A stretch of DNA of 64,000 nt from Chitinophagales bacterium (GCA_044228435.1 JBGAUW010000003.1:215933-279932); one strand, 5' to 3'. Numbered from the stretch's first letter, positions 15,764-62,716 are shown. Notes: generated from the sequence alone by a model not told the origin. Translations and numbers: made by a program.

Positions 15764-17386
15764 TTATTGTTCGTAAAGTATAACAGCCTTGTAAGGTTTG
15801 CCTACAATACCTAATGAGTTTAGCAAGGTGGTCTGTACTTCAAACACACCGTTTTTTAGGGTATAGCTGTATTCCACGTTAGAAAGCACGCCCCCTAACA
15901 GATTGGTAAGCGGCGCAATAACTCCTTTAACGGGGTCAATGGCAGATACCATTACCTGTAACACCTTTCCGTCTGCAATACCTGTGTTAGTAGCAGTAGC
16001 ACTATTCGCCCCCGGCATAGTGCCCTCTACTTTCATCATTTTAATCATGGGTGCGTTGCTACCACCAAGACGCGTAAAGCCATTCACATCTAAATCTGCC
16101 TGCGGGTTAGGATTGTTAATACCCACTTTGCCCGGGTTATTGTTGTATATGTTGTTTCCGCTACGGCTCCAAACGGAATCAGCTACACCTGTAGGGCCCT
16201 GTGCACCAGTAGCACCTTTTTCGCCTGTTTCGCCCTTAGGGCCTGTAGCTCCTGCCGGGCCTGCTACGCTTACGCCATTCACACCTGGCACCCCTTGTGG
16301 GCCTTGCTCTCCGGTTGCACCTTTTTCTCCCTGCTCTCCGGTTGCACCTTTTTCTCCCTGCGCTCCGGTTGCACCTTTTTCTCCTTGTACCCCTGTATCC
16401 CCCTTAGCGCCCGTGTCGCCCTGTGCTCCTGTGTCACCTTTAGCTCCTGTATCTCCCTTTGCACCGGTATCCCCTTGGGGACCTTTAGTGCCTTGCGCAC
16501 CGGTAACACCTATAGGGCCTTGTGGTCCGGTAGCGCCAACTTCGCCTTGCGCACCGGTATCACCCTTTGCACCAGTGTCGCCCTTATCACCCTGCGCTCC
16601 GGTGTCACCTTTTGCTCCTGTATCACCCTGTGCACCGGTATCGCCTTTTGGCCCGGTATCACCGGTAGTTCCTATTACTCCATCTGCACCGGCTGGCCCA
16701 ACAGGACCTTGTGGGCCTGTGTCGCCTTTATCACCAGTATCACCTTTTGGTCCTTGTATACCATCGGCGCCTGTATCACCTACTGGCCCTTGCAATCCTG
16801 TAGCCCCGGTAACACCTTGTACACCAGCAGGCCCTTGTGGACCTATAGGTCCGGCCGGCCCCACTGGCCCTTGCGGACCAACAGCACCATTAATGCCCGG
16901 GGCACCAGGTGCGCCGGTTGCTCCTGCAATACCCTGCAATCCTGTAGGGCCGGTTGGGCCTGGTGTAGAACTGCCGGAGCTTACCGCATATAAAGCATAA
17001 GGCACACTTAATAGTTGGGTAGTACCCATATCCGAATAAGCAGTACCACCGGTAATATCGGTTTCAACCTGCATAAACTTGCTGCCGTTGCCCCAGTTAA
17101 TGCCGCCAAGGCTGCCTACGCTAATAGAGCCACCACCAACAATTACGGTTATAATGCCGAATTGATTGGGAAACACGGTATCGGTTTGCTGAAATATAAC
17201 AGGTCCGTTAGCCGTAGTATCATGTATGGTAAACCGCATACTTACGGGCTGGTTTTGAATAATGTTGCCCATAGCATCGCGCACTACCGCCTGGTAGCCA
17301 AAGCCCTGGGGAACATTATTAGCTGCAAAATTGGTAAAGTACGTGCATAGTAATGCAACGAGAAGGAGTGGGTAATTTTTCCGCAT
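15764..17386 (-). CDS. secreted collagen-like triple-helix-repeat protein
   Basis: Signal peptide ([15 protein letters not shown]), a ~140-aa N-terminal domain and ~85 Gly-X-Y triplets (aa 143-399) with one 2-residue break. A ~140-aa C-terminal globular domain follows. Confidence 0.85.
16190..16960 (-). repeat. Gly-X-Y coding repeat region (9/18/27-bp periodic DNA repeats)
   Basis: By hand count, 76 uninterrupted GXY triplets, one further GVS triplet, a 2-residue VA break and 8 more triplets. It includes three near-identical 27-bp units at 16309-16389. Confidence 0.85.
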
Positions 17387-53477: not shown

Positions 53478-54365
53478 TCAGGCCGCTACCGTGGCGGGCA
53501 CTTTCTTTTTAGCCTGCACATGCTGCCGCGAGGTTTTGCAAACCTTATCCCAAATAGACGATACCTCGCCGAAGTTGGCGTTTACATCGCTATGGTGTAT
53601 GTTGTGCCAGGCGCTGCTGTTTAAACCAACGCGGGGAAGCACACGCTCCAGCCAGTTAAACGTAACCCCGCAGTGCAGGTAAAGATTTAAAAACACAAAG
53701 CCCACAATGGCCGAAAAATAAAGCGGCGCAAAATGCTTGGCCGGCGGAAAACAAATAAGCAGCAGGGGCCAAAAGGTAAGCAGGGTTTCCAACGGCCCTA
53801 CGGCAAAGCCCGAAAAGGGGGTAGGGTCGCGAAAGGTATGGTGGTGCTTATGAAACGGAAAAAACATACGGGTATGCAGCAACCGGTGTTTCCAGTAGGT
53901 CATAGCATCTACTGCTATTATGCCCAGGTACATTTGCAGCACTACCATCCACCAGCTAAGGCCCATTTCTTCTACCGTCCACGCAAGCCCGGTGGGTAGG
54001 CCCATGCGATACATACCTACGGGCCAGGCCGCCATACACGATACTACAAACATAGCCCGTGTAGTGCCAAATGCCTCCATAGCAATAGGCGGCGTTTTTT
54101 TTCGCTGCCCCTGTATACGGGTGCCTTTGCGCTCCGAAAACCAATACATAAGTGTGCTGAACAGCAATAAAGGAATGGTAATAACCGCAAAAATGCGCCA
54201 CAGGCTATCGTAATAAATACGGGCGCTGGGGTGCAATAAACCCGATAGAAAGAAGGCTATAACAATAAAACCATCTACAAATGTAGCTACCTTATCGGGG
54301 CGAAAAACATGCTGCTTTACAAGGGTGGCCATGGTGGTGGGTTGATTTGAATCAAAGGTATACAC
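53478..54365 (-). CDS. fatty acid hydroxylase / sterol desaturase superfamily membrane protein (ERG3/ERG25-like)
   Basis: Three His boxes (HRLLH, HKHHH, HNIHH) and four or more hydrophobic helices. An alternative ATG start lies at 54332. Confidence 0.75.
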   Translation of the reverse strand: MYTFDSNQPTTMATLVKQHVFRPDKVATFVDGFIVIAFFLSGLLHPSARIYYDSLWRIFAVITIPLLLFSTLMYWFSERKGTRIQGQRKKTPPIAMEAFGTTRAMFVVSCMAAWPVGMYRMGLPTGLAWTVEEMGLSWWMVVLQMYLGIIAVDAMTYWKHRLLHTRMFFPFHKHHHTFRDPTPFSGFAVGPLETLLTFWPLLLICFPPAKHFAPLYFSAIVGFVFLNLYLHCGVTFNWLERVLPRVGLNSSAWHNIHHSDVNANFGEVSSIWDKVCKTSRQHVQAKKKVPATVAA

Positions 54366-56968: not shown

Positions 56969-59170
56969 TTATCCCTTCAAATACCTGCCCAGCGCCCAAA
57001 TGGGGAACACATTGCGGTAGCTGGTGTAGCTTATCATACAGTTATGGTTAAAAACGCCGCTTATGCTTTCTTGTGGCCAATCGCCGGTGGGTTGCTGGCG
57101 GCTGATGAGTAAGCGCATACCTTTTTCGATGGCAGTTTTTATAGCCTGTTGTTTAGCACCGGTTGTTAGTTTCTCAATCTCCATTAGGCTTAGCAAAGCC
57201 CAACTGGTATTAACCACCTGGCTGGTGGGGTGCTCTATGTATTCTTTCTCAATACAGCTTTCAAAGCTTTCGCCCCAGCCACCATCTTCTTTTTGTTTCG
57301 ATAAAAGAAACGTGCTTGTACGTTCGATTGCTGCATTTATTTCCGCACTCTGTATTCCGGTTTCCGCCTTAGTAAGCGCTTCAATGGCAAACCAGGTTCC
57401 ATAGGTAAAACAAACTGCCCACGAACCATACCAAGAGCCATCTTCCCGCTGCAAGTTCTTTTTAAATTCTGCCAGGCTTTGTATACAGGCCGATGAACAT
57501 TCGGTGTAGGAGTAATCTACCATTATGTTTCCAAATACTTCCGAGGGGTTCAGTAACTCTATCCATTCCGGCGCACGGGTCAGTTCATACGATGCCCAAC
57601 CGCCGCCACTGTTTTGCATAGAAAGTAAAAGGTCGGCCGCCTTCTTTAATCTTTCATCAGAAATTTGTTTCTCCTGTATCGTATCTTCTCTCTTGTGCCT
57701 TTCCTCTTGTTTCTGTTGTCTTGTTTCTTGCTTCTTGTTTCTTGGCTCTACTAACAACGCCGTCTTCAATCCCTCTGCCGTGCAATCGGTAATGGGCCAA
57801 CCGTGGTCGGCAGTAGAGAAAGGCCAGCCGCCTACGGAGTCGTGCCGGAAATACTTTTTGTGGTCGCGCACTTCTTCTTTCACTTGGCTATGGTCAATGA
57901 AATTGAAAGCCTTACTTACTGTTTCAGGAAAATACTTTTCCATACCACCTTCTAAAATAGCCTGGGTGGCAAACACGGTATCCCATAATTGCGAGCCGTT
58001 ATAGCCCTGCATTTTCATACCATCTTCAGCTACCCAAAGGTAGTCGGCCCAACGCTCTGCGTGCTTTTTAAACCGCACTGAATCTTTACCGTAGGCATGG
58101 TAAATAGCAATAGAGTTTATAACCTGATTAACCGGGCCTATATCAATATAATTGGTGTGTTCATCTTCGGCATTAATGTAATCCAGGCAAAAGTCGACCG
58201 CCTTTTTGCGCCAGCTTTTTACTTTAAACTTTTCGTAAACGTTTAAAGCGCGGTTCATCAGTTTTAAAGCTGCCGACTGAGGGTAGTATAAATCGGGCTC
58301 TGCACAACTTTCGCGCGCCTTTACCCAATCTACCGATGCATAATCTTGTGTATATAACTCCTTGCGCAGTTCGGCAATCAGGTTGTTTTGTCGCCCTATC
58401 ACTTTATGTCCATAGCAATAAGCCATGGGCAGGTAAACCATGCGCGCATGGCACCAATACCGCCCCGGGTGAAAGGGCAGCCACTGCGGCAAAGTCCACA
58501 TTTCGGGAAACAGAGAGTTATTGCCTTCCCACTCATAAACGCCCAACACACTCAGATAAAATTTGCCCCAGCCAGGCAAGCCCGTAGCCCCGCCATTTGC
58601 CAGTATCCACTGGCGGGCATTGATAATTTGAGGGGTATCTTTTTCCATACCCAGCAGCCGCAACGCCACATATTGCAGTACGGTGCCGAACATGGTGCTT
58701 TTGCCTTCCAGGTGCAAGCCCCAGCCCCCATCGGGGTTCTGGTGGTTTAAAAAATATTGTTTCATTAAAGCCTGATGGCTTTCGGGAAAGGGGGTTTCGG
58801 TTACGTAGCTGGCTATAACCAGCCCCGGCAACAAAAACATAGGGCCGCCGTAGTCGCCCGGCCAATGGCCTTCGGGGGTTTGCAGGGTGCTGTAAAAGTG
58901 GATGCCTTTATAAGCCGCCTGAAAAGCCTTGTGCGATATTTCGCCCTCCAAATTATCGGGGTAAGGAATGTGCAGAGGATTTAAATTGGTTAGCAAACCA
59001 ACCTGCTGGGCCCTATAAACACGGTCTGCGCTGTTCGGATTTTCGGATTTGTTGTAAACAAAATCTTCAAAAACCTTACCGTGGTTGTTTCTCTCGCCAA
59101 CATAGCTCCATCGCTGCCTTCCCGCATCTGTATTGAGTTTCCAGCTGTTCCACCCCTGTTTATTTAGCAT
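56969..59170 (-). CDS. oxidosqualene cyclase (cycloartenol-synthase-like terpene cyclase/mutase)
   Basis: 733-aa ORF with the catalytic DCTAE motif (WPITDCTAEGLK), not the DxDD of squalene-hopene cyclases. Also YWCHARMVYLPM, MQGYNGSQLWDT and QW-type repeats (DGSWYGSW, DGGWGES, GDWPQE). Confidence 0.9.
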   Translation of the reverse strand: MLNKQGWNSWKLNTDAGRQRWSYVGERNNHGKVFEDFVYNKSENPNSADRVYRAQQVGLLTNLNPLHIPYPDNLEGEISHKAFQAAYKGIHFYSTLQTPEGHWPGDYGGPMFLLPGLVIASYVTETPFPESHQALMKQYFLNHQNPDGGWGLHLEGKSTMFGTVLQYVALRLLGMEKDTPQIINARQWILANGGATGLPGWGKFYLSVLGVYEWEGNNSLFPEMWTLPQWLPFHPGRYWCHARMVYLPMAYCYGHKVIGRQNNLIAELRKELYTQDYASVDWVKARESCAEPDLYYPQSAALKLMNRALNVYEKFKVKSWRKKAVDFCLDYINAEDEHTNYIDIGPVNQVINSIAIYHAYGKDSVRFKKHAERWADYLWVAEDGMKMQGYNGSQLWDTVFATQAILEGGMEKYFPETVSKAFNFIDHSQVKEEVRDHKKYFRHDSVGGWPFSTADHGWPITDCTAEGLKTALLVEPRNKKQETRQQKQEERHKREDTIQEKQISDERLKKAADLLLSMQNSGGGWASYELTRAPEWIELLNPSEVFGNIMVDYSYTECSSACIQSLAEFKKNLQREDGSWYGSWAVCFTYGTWFAIEALTKAETGIQSAEINAAIERTSTFLLSKQKEDGGWGESFESCIEKEYIEHPTSQVVNTSWALLSLMEIEKLTTGAKQQAIKTAIEKGMRLLISRQQPTGDWPQESISGVFNHNCMISYTSYRNVFPIWALGRYLKG

Positions 59171-59255
59171 CTTTTGGCATGTTTTCTAAGTAATCAACAA
59201 ATAAAAGTGAAAAATTCGCTATTGCAAATGCGAAAACTTCGCTTTTAATTTACGT

Positions 59256-59284
59256 TTGCATTGCGAATATTACGCAAGATGCAA
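59256..59284. promoter_or_regulatory. nested imperfect palindrome in the divergent cyclase / squalene synthase promoter region (candidate operator)
   Basis: TTGCA-T-TTGCG-aatatta-CGCAA-ga-TGCAA. A TACGTTTG (TAnnTTTG-like) box lies immediately upstream at 59251-59258. Confidence 0.35.
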
Positions 59285-59310
59285 TTTTCAGTTCACTAAA
59301 CAAAAACGTT

Positions 59311-60510
59311 ATGGTAATTGACTTACTGAAATCAGCCAATAAGCCATCAGAACTGATGGCGATACTTAAAATTAAATTCGGCGACCTATCGATTAAAGCA
59401 AATGATGAGCCACTGGATATACTGGCACGCAAACTTGGCGACCGCGCCTTTTGCTATGCCGCCCTTAACCAGGTTTCGCGCTCGTTTGCCGTGGTTATTC
59501 AGCAGCTGCCTTATGAACTGCGCGACCCTGTTTGTGTATTTTACCTCGTGCTGCGCGGGCTCGACTCGGTAGAAGATGATATGACTTACCCTGCCGAACA
59601 GCGCTTACCCCTGCTGCGCAACTTCCACGAAAAGTGCAACCAAAAGGGTTGTAAAATAGAAGGCGTGGGCGACTCAGCCGACTACCGCGTACTGCTGGCC
59701 AACTTTGACAAGGTGATAAACGTTCACCAATCGCTAAAACCCGAATACCGCGATGTAATAACCAACATTTGCGAAAAGATGGGCAACGGTATGGCCGACT
59801 ACGCCAGCCGCAAGGTGGTTACCCTTACCGACTACGATGATTACTGTTATTATGTGGCCGGTTTAGTGGGTATTGGGCTTTCGAGCCTGTTTTACGCCTC
59901 GGGGCTGGAAAGCCACCAATTGCAGGATAGCTTTGAATTAGCCAACTCTATGGGCCTGTTGTTGCAAAAAACAAACATCAGCCGCGATTACTACGAAGAT
60001 TTGAACCTGGGCCGCTCATTTTGGCCGAAAGAGATTTGGGGTAAATATACCGAGCGACTGGATGAGCTACAGAAAAACCCCACCTCGCCAGAGTCGCTGG
60101 GCTGCATAAATGAGCTGGTAACCGATGCCCTGCAACACGTTAGCAACTGCATATTATACCTGAACATGATACGCGACCCGCAGGTGTTCCGGTTTTGTGC
60201 CATACCGCAGGTAATGGCTATGGCTACCCTGGCAAAAATTTACAATAACCCGGATGTGTTTACCGAGGTGGTAAAAATACGCAAGGGCCTTGCCGCTAAA
60301 CTAATGGTAGAAACCAACAGCATGGAAGTGGTAAACAAGGTGATGAACAAGTATGTGGAACAAATAAGAAGCAAACTGAATACGGAAGACCCGAACTACC
60401 TGCTGACTAAAAAACGCTTGAACCGCATTACCGAATCGCTGGATGATGTGAAATATAACAAGTGCGAAATAGTGCCCGATAGAGCGATAGAGGAATCGGT
60501 ATTGTTTTAA
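59311..60510 (+). CDS. squalene synthase (farnesyl-diphosphate farnesyltransferase, eukaryote-like)
   Basis: Has the two Asp-rich motifs (LDSVEDD, RDYYEDL), YCYYVAGLVGIGLS and FCAIPQVMAMATL. Confidence 0.9.
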   Translation: MVIDLLKSANKPSELMAILKIKFGDLSIKANDEPLDILARKLGDRAFCYAALNQVSRSFAVVIQQLPYELRDPVCVFYLVLRGLDSVEDDMTYPAEQRLPLLRNFHEKCNQKGCKIEGVGDSADYRVLLANFDKVINVHQSLKPEYRDVITNICEKMGNGMADYASRKVVTLTDYDDYCYYVAGLVGIGLSSLFYASGLESHQLQDSFELANSMGLLLQKTNISRDYYEDLNLGRSFWPKEIWGKYTERLDELQKNPTSPESLGCINELVTDALQHVSNCILYLNMIRDPQVFRFCAIPQVMAMATLAKIYNNPDVFTEVVKIRKGLAAKLMVETNSMEVVNKVMNKYVEQIRSKLNTEDPNYLLTKKRLNRITESLDDVKYNKCEIVPDRAIEESVLF

Positions 60511-60519
60511 AGGCGAACC

Positions 60520-61911
60520 ATGAGCACAAGCGAATACGACATATGCATTATTGGCGCCGGAGTAGCCGGTGGCACCCTCGCTGCTTACCTGGGCAGGCAT
60601 GGACTGCGGGTAGCAGTGATTGAAAAAAGCCTGCGTGAGCAAGACCGGATAGTAGGCGAATTGCTACAGCCTGGTGGCGTAATGAAGTTACGCGAAATGC
60701 AGCTGGAGCATTTGCTGGAAGATTTTGACGCCCAACCGGTAACCGGTTATGCGCTTTTTTTAAACGGACAAAACTTTAGGGTTAACTACCCCGAGGTGGA
60801 AAATGGCCGTGGTTTTAGGAACGGAAAGTTTGTGCAGAAAATAAGAAGTGAGCTTTCATCCCTGGCATCGGTGAAAGTGATTGAAGGAAGCGCCACCGGT
60901 TTTGTTGAAGAAGGGGATATAGTAAAGGGCGTAACTTATACCGATGCCGAAACCAAAGAACCGAAACAAATAAGTGCTGCACTTACAGTTGTGTGCGATG
61001 GTATGTTCTCGGGGTTTAGGGAGCAACTGGCTATGAACCAGAAAAAAATAAGCAGCTACTTTTTAGGCATGCTTTTAAAAGATTGTGTGCTACCCTATGC
61101 TAACCACGGCCATGTGATAATTGCCGACCCATCGCCTTGTTTGGTTTACCCGGTATCAAGCACCGAAACCAGAGTGCTGATTGATTTTCCGGGTAGTGAG
61201 CCGCCAAAAAAGGGAGAAGAACTAACCGCTTACTTACGCGATACTATTGGCACACAAATGCCCGAAGAAATTAAGCCCTCCTTTTATGCGGCAGTAGAGG
61301 AAGGCAAGTTTAAGGTAATGCCCAATCATATTTTTCCGGCAAAGCCAAGGCTTAAACAAGGGGCGGTTATGCTTGGCGATTCGCTGAACATGCGGCACCC
61401 GCTAACCGGCGGAGGCATGACAGTAGCTTTTACCGATGTGCATGCCTTAGGCAGTAAATTAATACAGGCCCTATTACAACCCGGCACGCCACGCACTCCA
61501 GAAGAAAAACAGCAGCTGATTTCGGCCTGCGTAAAAGAGTTTTACGAAAACCGGCACAAACAAGTGGCCACAGTAAATATTTTAGCCGATGCGCTTTACG
61601 GGGTAATGAGCAGTAAAGATTTAAAGCAAGCCTGCTACGATTACCTGGCCCGCGGTGGTAATTACTCTGCCGAGCCGATTTCTATTTTATCGGCTGTATC
61701 GCGCGATGTAACTTTGCTTATGCGCCACTTTTTTGCCGTGGCCTTGTATGGCGTTAAAAATCTTTTAGGCTCTAAACCAAACAAGCAAGGCGCCATTCGT
61801 TCGTATAAAATGATGAAGGCTGCTGTAAAAATTATTGCTCCCCTCATGGCAAATGAAAAGCCTAACCGGGTAACACGCTCGGCGCAGAGTGTGGCAAGAG
61901 CGATGTTTTGA
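60520..61911 (+). CDS. squalene monooxygenase (squalene epoxidase)
   Basis: FAD-binding motif (DICIIGAGVAGGTLAAYL...VAVIEK), DRIVGELLQPGG and GDSLNMRHPLTGGGMTVA. Its start lies 9 nt after the squalene synthase stop. Confidence 0.9.
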   Translation: MSTSEYDICIIGAGVAGGTLAAYLGRHGLRVAVIEKSLREQDRIVGELLQPGGVMKLREMQLEHLLEDFDAQPVTGYALFLNGQNFRVNYPEVENGRGFRNGKFVQKIRSELSSLASVKVIEGSATGFVEEGDIVKGVTYTDAETKEPKQISAALTVVCDGMFSGFREQLAMNQKKISSYFLGMLLKDCVLPYANHGHVIIADPSPCLVYPVSSTETRVLIDFPGSEPPKKGEELTAYLRDTIGTQMPEEIKPSFYAAVEEGKFKVMPNHIFPAKPRLKQGAVMLGDSLNMRHPLTGGGMTVAFTDVHALGSKLIQALLQPGTPRTPEEKQQLISACVKEFYENRHKQVATVNILADALYGVMSSKDLKQACYDYLARGGNYSAEPISILSAVSRDVTLLMRHFFAVALYGVKNLLGSKPNKQGAIRSYKMMKAAVKIIAPLMANEKPNRVTRSAQSVARAMF

Positions 61912-61997: not shown

Positions 61998-62660
61998 TTA
62001 TTGTTTTATACCCTTTAATATTATTTCGTATCCTGAACCTAAGCCTGAATGTACCTGATAATAAAACACAGAATCATCCGGGGCTTTATGAAAAGATATA
62101 GTACTTGCATAGGGGCTAGGATAATTGTGTCCGAACAAATACCTGGTTGAGTCGGGGTTATAATAGATATGTTCAGTTTGTTTAGCAATAACCGCATTGC
62201 GGTAAACGGTAACTTCCAATAGCTCATCCAAAGCCGTGGTGGTATCCAACCCGGTAATATCCCAGGACCGAGAGGTACCCGTTACGTGATATATCCCCGA
62301 AAACTGGCCAATAGCTATACTGCAATCCGGGCCTGCCCATGCCGAATCGCAAACACATCCATTTGCTACACTGTGAGAATGAAGGCCGCAGGTATCATTT
62401 GATTGATCGCAATTCGGGCCAATCCATCCTGAATCACAAACACACCCATTTCCTACATTATGAGAATGCAGGCCACAGGTATCATTTGATTGGTCACAAT
62501 CCAAACCAAACCAACCCGTATCACATACACAAGTGCCATTCTCTAAATGTTTATGGCCGGTATCTCCACAAACATCTAAATCTCCGTCAGACCCTGTCTT
62601 TTTACATCCGGCTATTACCAAAAAGAGAACAATAAATAGTATGAAGCCTTTTAGTTTCAT
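61998..62660 (-). CDS. lipoprotein with three EGF-like CxCxxGWxGxxC repeats
   Basis: Has a lipobox (LFLVIAGC) and three ~27-aa Cys-rich units (..TCGLHSH.V.NGCVCDSGW.GP.CDQSN). I prefer the ATG at 62660 over the track start, which would run into the upstream terminator. Confidence 0.7.
   Translation of the reverse strand: MKLKGFILFIVLFLVIAGCKKTGSDGDLDVCGDTGHKHLENGTCVCDTGWFGLDCDQSNDTCGLHSHNVGNGCVCDSGWIGPNCDQSNDTCGLHSHSVANGCVCDSAWAGPDCSIAIGQFSGIYHVTGTSRSWDITGLDTTTALDELLEVTVYRNAVIAKQTEHIYYNPDSTRYLFGHNYPSPYASTISFHKAPDDSVFYYQVHSGLGSGYEIILKGIKQ
62322..62576 (-). repeat. 81-bp tandem coding repeats (EGF-like units)
   Basis: Units 2 and 3 are clearly related at the DNA level (..aggccacaggtatcatttgattggtcacaat.. 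versus ..aggccgcaggtatcatttgattgatcgcaat..). Confidence 0.65.
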
Positions 62661-62716
62661 TTTGATTTGTACGGGTAACACATTAGAAAAATAAAACAAT
62701 TACCGGTAAAACAAAA

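Follow-up and report, generated by a model that had tools for sequence, protein, structure and literature searches.

Can a three-gene cluster in a bacterial chromosome carry farnesyl diphosphate through to a sterol when the last of its enzymes has lost a conserved helix? The question is raised by a 64,000-nucleotide stretch of DNA from a Chitinophagales bacterium (GCA_044228435.1 JBGAUW010000003.1:215933-279932), referred to as a whole as the window. Three adjacent genes in the window encode an oxidosqualene cyclase (OSC), a squalene synthase (SQS) and a squalene epoxidase (SQE). An earlier note, made from the sequence alone, read them as a compact eukaryote-like route to a tetracyclic sterol. 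The module is very probably a genuine bacterial sterol-backbone set of a kind already described, carried on a Chitinophagales-like Bacteroidota chromosome. Sterol producers of the phylum Bacteroidota are already known, the layout in which SQE and SQS diverge from OSC recurs in about 20 metagenome-assembled genomes of Bacteroidota, and the window is a further, ordinary example of a rare bacterial trait. What sets it apart is a helix deletion in the OSC that may cripple the enzyme, together with a control region that is conserved and palindromic; neither alters what is known of the pathway.

Genes of the sterol-backbone module

The coordinates given in the earlier note for the three genes agree exactly with the open reading frame (ORF) list (Table 1). 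The SQE gene starts 9 bp past the SQS gene, and because of this spacing the two genes are probably co-transcribed. The OSC gene is divergent from this pair.

The SQS is of the eukaryotic Sqs type. It matches the equivalog profile TIGR01559 with 461 bits (cut-off 287) and human SQS (1EZF) with 315 bits, whereas HpnC and HpnD give only 39 and 50 bits, respectively. The two Asp-rich motifs that had been claimed for it, LDSVEDD and RDYYEDL, both lie at defined residues. The SQE is a flavin adenine dinucleotide (FAD) monooxygenase that matches PF08491 (Squalene epoxidase) with 292 bits and human SQLE (6c6n) with 309 bits. The GxGxxG and GD motifs of FAD binding are present, and the motifs IVGELLQPGG (residue 44) and GDSLNMRHPLTGGGMTVA, both named in the earlier note, were recovered.

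The OSC matches PF13249 and PF13243 (SQHop_cyclase_N and SQHop_cyclase_C), each at about 1e-50, and the NCBIfam profile TIGR01787 with 668 bits (cut-off 323). Among solved structures, human lanosterol synthase is its closest match, with 674 bits, whereas the squalene-hopene cyclase (SHC) of Alicyclobacillus reaches 136 bits. When its AlphaFold model was compared by Foldseek, human OSC was matched with a template modelling (TM) score of 0.84-0.85 and 42-43% identity, whereas identity to SHC was 21%. The SHC profile TIGR01507 is matched with 242 bits, below its cut-off of 431, and the catalytic motif is DCTAE, at residue 462, with no DxDD, as had been claimed. By bit score and identity the cyclase thus does not group with the SHCs, a grouping that the earlier note had named as evidence that would speak against it. 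The likeness of all three proteins to eukaryotic enzymes rather than to HpnC/D or SHC, which that note also proposed, is borne out by bit scores that favour the human enzymes.

The pathway steps given here follow what is well established for enzymes of these families. SQS would join two molecules of farnesyl diphosphate to presqualene diphosphate, which would be reduced to squalene. SQE would convert squalene to (3S)-2,3-oxidosqualene with FAD and O2. In the OSC, Asp462 of the motif I-T-D-C-T-A-E would protonate the epoxide, and the chain would fold to the protosteryl cation.

Deletion in the oxidosqualene cyclase

Aligned with ten homologues, the OSC of the window is the only protein in which 22 residues are missing after L573, a loss that the earlier note had not noticed. 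The lost peptide, FSDYRKQEIERALSKGIGFILSQ in the 94%-identical protein P0121, corresponds to about residues 549-570 of human OSC and comprises an outer barrel helix and the first nine residues of the QW motif KGIGFILSQQREDGSW. In the DNA the lesion is a clean 66-bp gap relative both to L001 (91% nucleotide and 94% protein identity) and to L002 (L numbers designate the loci of relatives), and no microhomology flanks it. The closest OSC relatives, at 94%, 87% and 82% identity and with L087 among them, are intact. Between window positions 565 and 580, 37-38 residues are found in every one of the 201 other OSCs, as against 16 here. The deletion directly precedes the cavity residue Trp584 (human W581).

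AlphaFold models of the window OSC and of the intact P0121 differ in mean predicted local distance difference test (pLDDT) score (85.5 vs 90.5) and in predicted TM score (pTM, 0.88 vs 0.92). The pLDDT is 42 in the window OSC and 95 in P0121 at residues 571-580, and 45 and 97, respectively, at residues 581-590. Values below 50 occur in the window OSC at residues 479-499, a charged insertion, and at 574-586, the junction including W584, whereas in P0121 they are confined to the charged insertion (491-499); residues 578-594 of P0121 form the helix that the window OSC has lost. A complete double alpha-barrel with full QW-motif helices is not present in the window OSC. When an alpha/alpha-barrel fold loses an outer helix, two adjacent inner helices must be joined end to end, and destabilisation of the OSC is expected for this reason. 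The charged insertion, KKQETRQQKQEERHKREDTIQEKQ, is a Lys/Glu/Gln-rich surface loop that is predicted to be disordered; only P0121 and P0002 have it.

Either the enzyme is impaired (destabilised or inactive), or the assembly is wrong at the junction. There is an appreciable chance, short of even, that the deletion truly exists and leaves the OSC inactive or strongly destabilised; the pathway would then stop at squalene or 2,3-oxidosqualene, and the cluster would be a recently broken one. The fixed length of the segment in all other homologues, its confident helix in the intact control P0121, its share in the canonical QW motif (the first half of KGIGFILSQQREDGSW) and the collapse of model confidence around Trp584 all point in this direction. 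The deletion is in frame, however, SQS and SQE are intact, and pLDDT is no gauge of activity. The rest of the OSC is also under purifying selection: by parsimony with L002 as outgroup, the window lineage has accumulated 11 nonsynonymous and 54 synonymous changes and the L001 lineage 8 and 51 (Fisher p = 0.63), and a pseudogene signature (relaxed selection), sought in the OSC by these lineage-specific substitution counts, was not found.

It is possible, if rather doubtful, that the 66 bp were lost through an error of assembly or consensus, such as a mixture of strains in a metagenome bin could cause, and that the true gene is intact and functional. The variant is known from one contig only, the cluster at 90% has two members of which the other is intact, and all relatives are intact as well; the lack of relaxed selection also fits an error. 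Against it, the region is non-repetitive, the junction shows no microhomology, and exactly 22 codons are missing, an in-frame outcome that chance would give one time in three. A scan of metagenome contigs of the Joint Genome Institute (JGI) for the junction sequence gave 0 matches, which neither confirms nor refutes the deletion. The OSC fold might also tolerate the loss of this helix, the allele then being a natural variant, though this is less likely than the proposal, taken up below, of a dedicated regulator acting at the control region.

Several points weigh against a working sterol-backbone module. The deletion may abolish OSC activity, and no sterol would then be made. The substitution counts fit a functional gene, a very recent lesion and an assembly error alike. 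The profile TIGR03463 (osq_cycl) is matched with 666 bits in two stretches, below its trusted cut-off of 851. Of a contig about 396 kb long the window covers only 64 kb, and the genome may hold a second OSC or tailoring genes beyond it. The enzyme families named in the earlier note are right, and the route to a tetracyclic sterol that it drew from them is insecure here, since the cyclase allele lacks a conserved helix.

The shortfall against TIGR03463 was also considered as a signature of the deletion and was rejected. Intact relatives (711-722 bits) and a Methylomonas OSC (657 bits) miss the cut-off likewise, and the whole clade is excluded by it.

Predicted product of the cyclase

The window OSC was mapped to human numbering by alignment, and its residues were compared in a census of 202 OSC sequences. 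The conserved residues include D462/C463 (human D455/C456), C558 (C533), Y528 (Y503) and W584 (W581), and further conserved residues of the cavity are W239, H241, W396, F451, F707/N708 (F696/N697) and Y715. The specificity triad Y390/H456/I460 corresponds to human positions 381, 449 and 453, I460 being the equivalent of human V453. The triad YHI is found in 167 of the 202 OSCs and the remaining 35 have YNV or YQV; the Methylococcales OSCs in the ten-homologue alignment carry N and V at the second and third positions.

The combination Y381/H449/I453 is that of cycloartenol synthases, and among bacteria the presence of I453 went together with cycloartenol production in every case (PMC4919349). 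Because of its triad, the window OSC is predicted to form cycloartenol, and not lanosterol or an arborane. Demethylase genes do not lie nearby, and for this reason cycloartenol is probably also the end product, as it is in Fluviicola taffensis. That OSC genes occur in Bacteroidota has been documented, cycloartenol being the sole sterol of F. taffensis (PMC4919349).

It is very unlikely that the OSC instead makes a non-sterol triterpenol, either an arborane (eudoraenol, isoarborinol) or a pentacyclic product. Arboranes are indeed made by Eudoraea, a member of the Bacteroidota, and by some metagenomic OSCs, and their synthases are defined by the substitutions W230S, H232Y and N697Y (PMC12414744). 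None of these diagnostic substitutions is present in the window OSC, which has W239, H241 and N708 at the corresponding positions, as do all 202 sequences, and its YHI triad is of the cycloartenol type.

Divergent control region

The SQS and SQE genes would form one transcription unit and the OSC gene the other, both diverging from the 140-bp region between them. In this region a 13-bp palindrome of the type GCGAA-N3-TTCGC occurs three times, at spacings of 23 and 33 bp. A stretch of about 80 bp is nearly invariant among the window, L002, L004, L006 and L087, whose OSC proteins are just 67-87% identical, and the conservation of the region exceeds that of the flanking genes. Allowing at most one mismatch, the palindrome occurs six times in the whole window (1.9 expected), and three of these six copies lie in the OSC-SQS region.

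The palindrome was also scanned in 20 divergent loci, namely 18 from the best 80 genomes with an OSC relative together with L002 and L003. Between SQS and OSC, 1-4 copies are present in 11 of these 20 loci, or in 12 of 21 when L087 is included, and the palindrome-bearing loci include OSCs that are only 55-60% identical to that of the window. In the 1.43 Mb of locus sequence that was fetched, the palindrome occurs 5.3 times per kb between SQS and OSC and 0.063 times per kb elsewhere, an enrichment of about 85-fold.

A scan of the whole window against Rfam at gathering thresholds gave 0 matches, and the conserved intergenic region is therefore no known RNA family. Scans for sigma-70 promoter and terminator consensus sequences gave counts at or below shuffle expectation; promoters of Bacteroidota are unlike the sigma-70 consensus and deviate from it. 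The invariant core of the putative operator was scanned in JGI metagenome contigs, with 0 matches.

On the likeliest reading, the palindromes are putative operators of a dimeric transcription factor that would govern both divergent units. More tentatively, the nearly invariant core with its palindromes could serve as operator array for a Chitinophagales regulator that is devoted to sterol synthesis and has not been described before, a proposal that is rather less likely to hold than to fail. If it does hold, sterol production in bacteria would for the first time have a defined transcriptional switch.

Tailoring genes and a fatty acid hydroxylase-family neighbour

No gene for CYP51, a Rieske protein (SdmA), a short-chain dehydrogenase/reductase (SDR; SdmB), a C-14 reductase (ERG24) or a sterol methyltransferase was found among the ORFs of at least 150 amino acids (aa) in the 64-kb window. 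The statement in the earlier note that no tailoring genes are adjacent therefore stands for the classical ones, and it overlooked a gene of the sterol desaturase family 2.6 kb from the OSC gene. This gene encodes a membrane protein with an FA_hydroxylase domain and three His boxes (HRLLH, HKHHH and HNIHH).

Considered as a sterol C-5 desaturase (ERG3/SC5D), the FA_hydroxylase protein matches only the generic profile PF04116. It has no equivalog match in NCBIfam (best OlsE, E = 8e-4) and no match in the PDB even at E = 1. Homologues with 60-85% identity occur in many metagenome-assembled genomes (MAGs) of Chitinophagales and Flavobacteriales, where they are labelled "sterol desaturase family protein" by NCBI and, in several cases, "lathosterol oxidase" by JGI. 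In L002/L003 and L087/L088 the gene keeps its position relative to the cluster, and in 80 other species-level genomes 0 homologues were found within 10 kb of the OSC gene. In two unrelated genomes it adjoins a DUF6134 gene, with sterol genes not nearby.

Membership of the FA_hydroxylase gene in the cluster was considered and found unsupported, since its linkage to OSC is confined to the immediate clade and it is paired with DUF6134 elsewhere. The protein is a possible, unproven tailoring enzyme and may be unrelated to the cluster. An unmodified product, as the earlier note foresaw, is still the most likely outcome, the FA_hydroxylase being an unproven candidate with no conserved OSC linkage beyond the immediate clade.

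Table 1. Features of the sterol cluster and its surroundings in the window (positions counted from the first nucleotide of the 64,000)
Feature	Position	Strand	Size or detail	Basis
FA_hydroxylase / "sterol desaturase family" membrane protein	53478-54365	-	295 aa	PF04116, 87 bits
Oxidosqualene cyclase (OSC)	56969-59170	-	733 aa, predicted cycloartenol-synthase type	ORF list, profile and structure-sequence matches
OSC in-frame deletion junction	57452-57453	-	66 bp (22 codons), between L573 and Q574	Protein and DNA alignment
OSC charged low-complexity insertion, KKQETRQQKQEERHKREDTIQEKQ	57671-57748	-	Residues ~475-500	Alignment, pLDDT
OSC ITDCTAE, oxidosqualene-cyclase catalytic Asp motif	57773-57793	-	I460-T-D462-C-T-A-E466	Alignment to human OSC
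OSC-SQS divergent intergenic region	59171-59310	.	140 bp	
Palindrome copy 1, GTGAAAAATTCGC	59207-59219	.	GCGAA-N3-TTCGC type, one mismatch	
Palindrome copy 2, GCGAAAACTTCGC	59230-59242	.	Perfect match	
Palindrome copy 3, GCGAATATTACGC	59263-59275	.	One mismatch	
Squalene synthase (SQS), eukaryotic Sqs type	59311-60510	+	399 aa	TIGR01559, human SQS match
SQS LDSVEDD	59560-59580	+	Residue 84	Motif position
SQS RDYYEDL	59983-60003	+	Residue 225	Motif position
Squalene epoxidase (SQE), FAD monooxygenase	60520-61911	+	463 aa	PF08491, human SQLE match
SQE GAGVAG dinucleotide-binding motif	60553-60570	+	Residue 12	Motif position
SQE GDSLNMRHPLTGGGMTVA	61375-61428	+	Residue 286	Motif position

Genomic context

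The window contains housekeeping genes for PdxA, KsgA, an M17 aminopeptidase, DnaJ/GrpE, 5-enolpyruvylshikimate-3-phosphate (EPSP) synthase and an H+-pyrophosphatase (H+-PPase), together with many genes for cargo proteins of the type IX secretion system (T9SS) with Por_Secre_tail or CHU_C domains. T9SS cargo with these domains is a hallmark of Bacteroidota. The GC content of the cluster is 0.46-0.47, within the range of 0.42-0.52 found in the window, and the named closest homologues of the OSC come from Chitinophagales and from Bacteroidota MAGs. The gene order 2-Hacid-DH, KsgA, FA_hydroxylase, M17, PdxA, OSC, SQS and SQE is common to L002, L003 and L087/L088, which represent three independent assemblies. 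In L087 the order runs on with a protein containing epidermal growth factor (EGF)-like domains and the H+-PPase, as in the window. Because of the housekeeping and T9SS neighbours, the matching GC content and the conserved synteny, the cluster is chromosomal bacterial DNA and not contamination. It is scarcely credible that the locus is an SHC/hopanoid locus, for which nothing speaks but the class II terpene cyclase fold that both enzymes have and against which stand the DCTAE motif and the profile and structure scores given above, or a eukaryotic contaminant, against which stand these same flanks, GC content and synteny.

Other genes of the window were also recorded. Directly downstream of SQE lies a gene (61998-62699, minus strand) for a protein of 233 aa in which EGF domains of teneurin-like type, unusual and eukaryote-like, are repeated. 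The N-terminus of this protein resembles a lipoprotein signal by eye, and a counterpart occupies the same position in L087. Collagen triple-helix repeats (PF01391, 136 bits) are present in a protein of 540 aa whose gene, at 15764-17386 (minus strand), lies where the DNA is locally rich in GC (0.50). The region 22081-50589 holds a run of very large T9SS cargo genes, whose proteins reach 2040 aa and contain PKD, Ig_7, SprB, subtilase, CHU_C and Por_Secre_tail domains. The stop codons of PdxA and OSC are 4 bp apart in the window; an extra 165-aa ORF without a Pfam match lies between these two genes in L087 (5619-6116) and L088 (5367-5864).

Distribution among relatives

One genome per species was scanned for relatives of the OSC, 185,579 species in all, and 254 genomes with such a relative were found. 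Among the best 80 of these 254, 44 are Bacteroidota, mostly Chitinophagales, all of them MAGs with no isolate, and the rest are mostly Methylococcales. SQS is directly divergent from OSC in 18 of the 80 loci, all but one of which (a Chlorobiota MAG) are labelled Bacteroidota. That sterol genes are rare in bacteria with cases among the Bacteroidota, as the earlier note stated, accords with the published record (PMC4919349), and the genes sqmo and osc lie near each other in most bacterial genomes (PMC7306690). The window OSC probably belongs with F. taffensis and the Methylococcales in the group termed "Group 2d" by Wei et al., a placement suggested because its nearest neighbours are the lanosterol-type OSCs of Methylococcales.

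Functions were assigned to the neighbouring genes of the relatives by inspecting the cluster sequences by eye. In 17 loci of other clade members, a polyprenyl (diphosphate) synthase gene adjoins OSC. Other loci contain mevalonate-pathway genes (HMG-CoA reductase, GHMP kinase and Idi2), some contain a DHCR24-like FAD oxidase, and L034 contains a Rieske/SDR pair resembling SdmA/SdmB. None of these genes is present in the window, whose module is a minimal three-gene core.

In some loci a gene for an AraC-type membrane regulator lies between SQS and OSC; it too is missing from the window. Extra neighbours of these kinds occur in L004, L007, L022-L026, L029, L032, L034, L043, L045, L048, L049, L054, L055, L058 and L073, almost all of which are Bacteroidota MAGs.

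Significance

Bacterial sterol producers bear on the reading of sterane biomarkers and on debates about the origin of eukaryotic sterol synthesis. The window adds one Bacteroidota genome to a clade that is known almost wholly from uncultured MAGs. As common inhabitants of soil, fresh water and sludge, Chitinophagales may contribute more cycloartenol than has been appreciated. The conserved cis-element could be used for finding the regulator of bacterial sterol synthesis, and the natural helix deletion in the OSC is a testable lead.

Comparison with known systems

The eukaryotic enzymes provide the structural reference for the module. Human lanosterol synthase (1W6K) and a plant OSC (8J5Z) match the fold of the window OSC with TM scores of 0.84-0.86. 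The human residues D455/C456/C533, W387, F444, Y503, W581, F696 and Y704 are common to both proteins, whereas human OSC has T, C and V at positions 381, 449 and 453, where the window OSC has Y, H and I. The window OSC also lacks the equivalent of the helix at about 549-570 and has an extra charged loop. Human SQS (1EZF) and SQLE (6C6N) are full-length matches over the catalytic domain, and the Asp-rich and FAD motifs are kept in the window. In contrast to human SQS, a C-terminal membrane anchor is not evident in the window SQS when the translation is inspected by eye, and the window SQE is without the N-terminal regulatory domain of eukaryotic SQLE.

Among bacterial systems, the eudoraenol (arborane) synthase of Eudoraea adriatica is a Bacteroidota OSC homologue that, like the window OSC, acts on oxidosqualene, the latter by prediction. 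Its S230, Y232 and Y697 are not found in the window OSC.

The Methylococcales (Methylococcus, Methylobacter and Methylomonas) have the next-closest OSCs, with 51-53% identity, and in these organisms too SQE adjoins OSC. Their triad is YNV or YQV, the lanosterol type, whereas that of the window is YHI. The SQE gene of Methylococcales lies downstream of OSC on the same strand in a locus without an Sqs-type squalene synthase, whereas the window has a divergent SQS-SQE pair. Methylococcales loci also carry CYP51(-ferredoxin), Rieske (SdmA) and SDR (SdmB) genes, none of which is found in the window.

The closest known parallel in taxonomy and predicted product is F. taffensis (Fluta_3214, OSC; Fluta_3221, SQE; PMC4919349), which belongs to the same phylum and has an I453-type OSC, as in the window. 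Downstream sterol-modifying genes are absent from F. taffensis and cycloartenol is the only sterol seen in it; the window is likewise without the classical modifying genes. By their locus tags the F. taffensis genes are several genes apart, whereas SQS-SQE and OSC are directly divergent in the window. The window OSC further differs from that of F. taffensis, to which its relatedness is inferred rather than measured, by the 22-aa deletion and the charged insertion.

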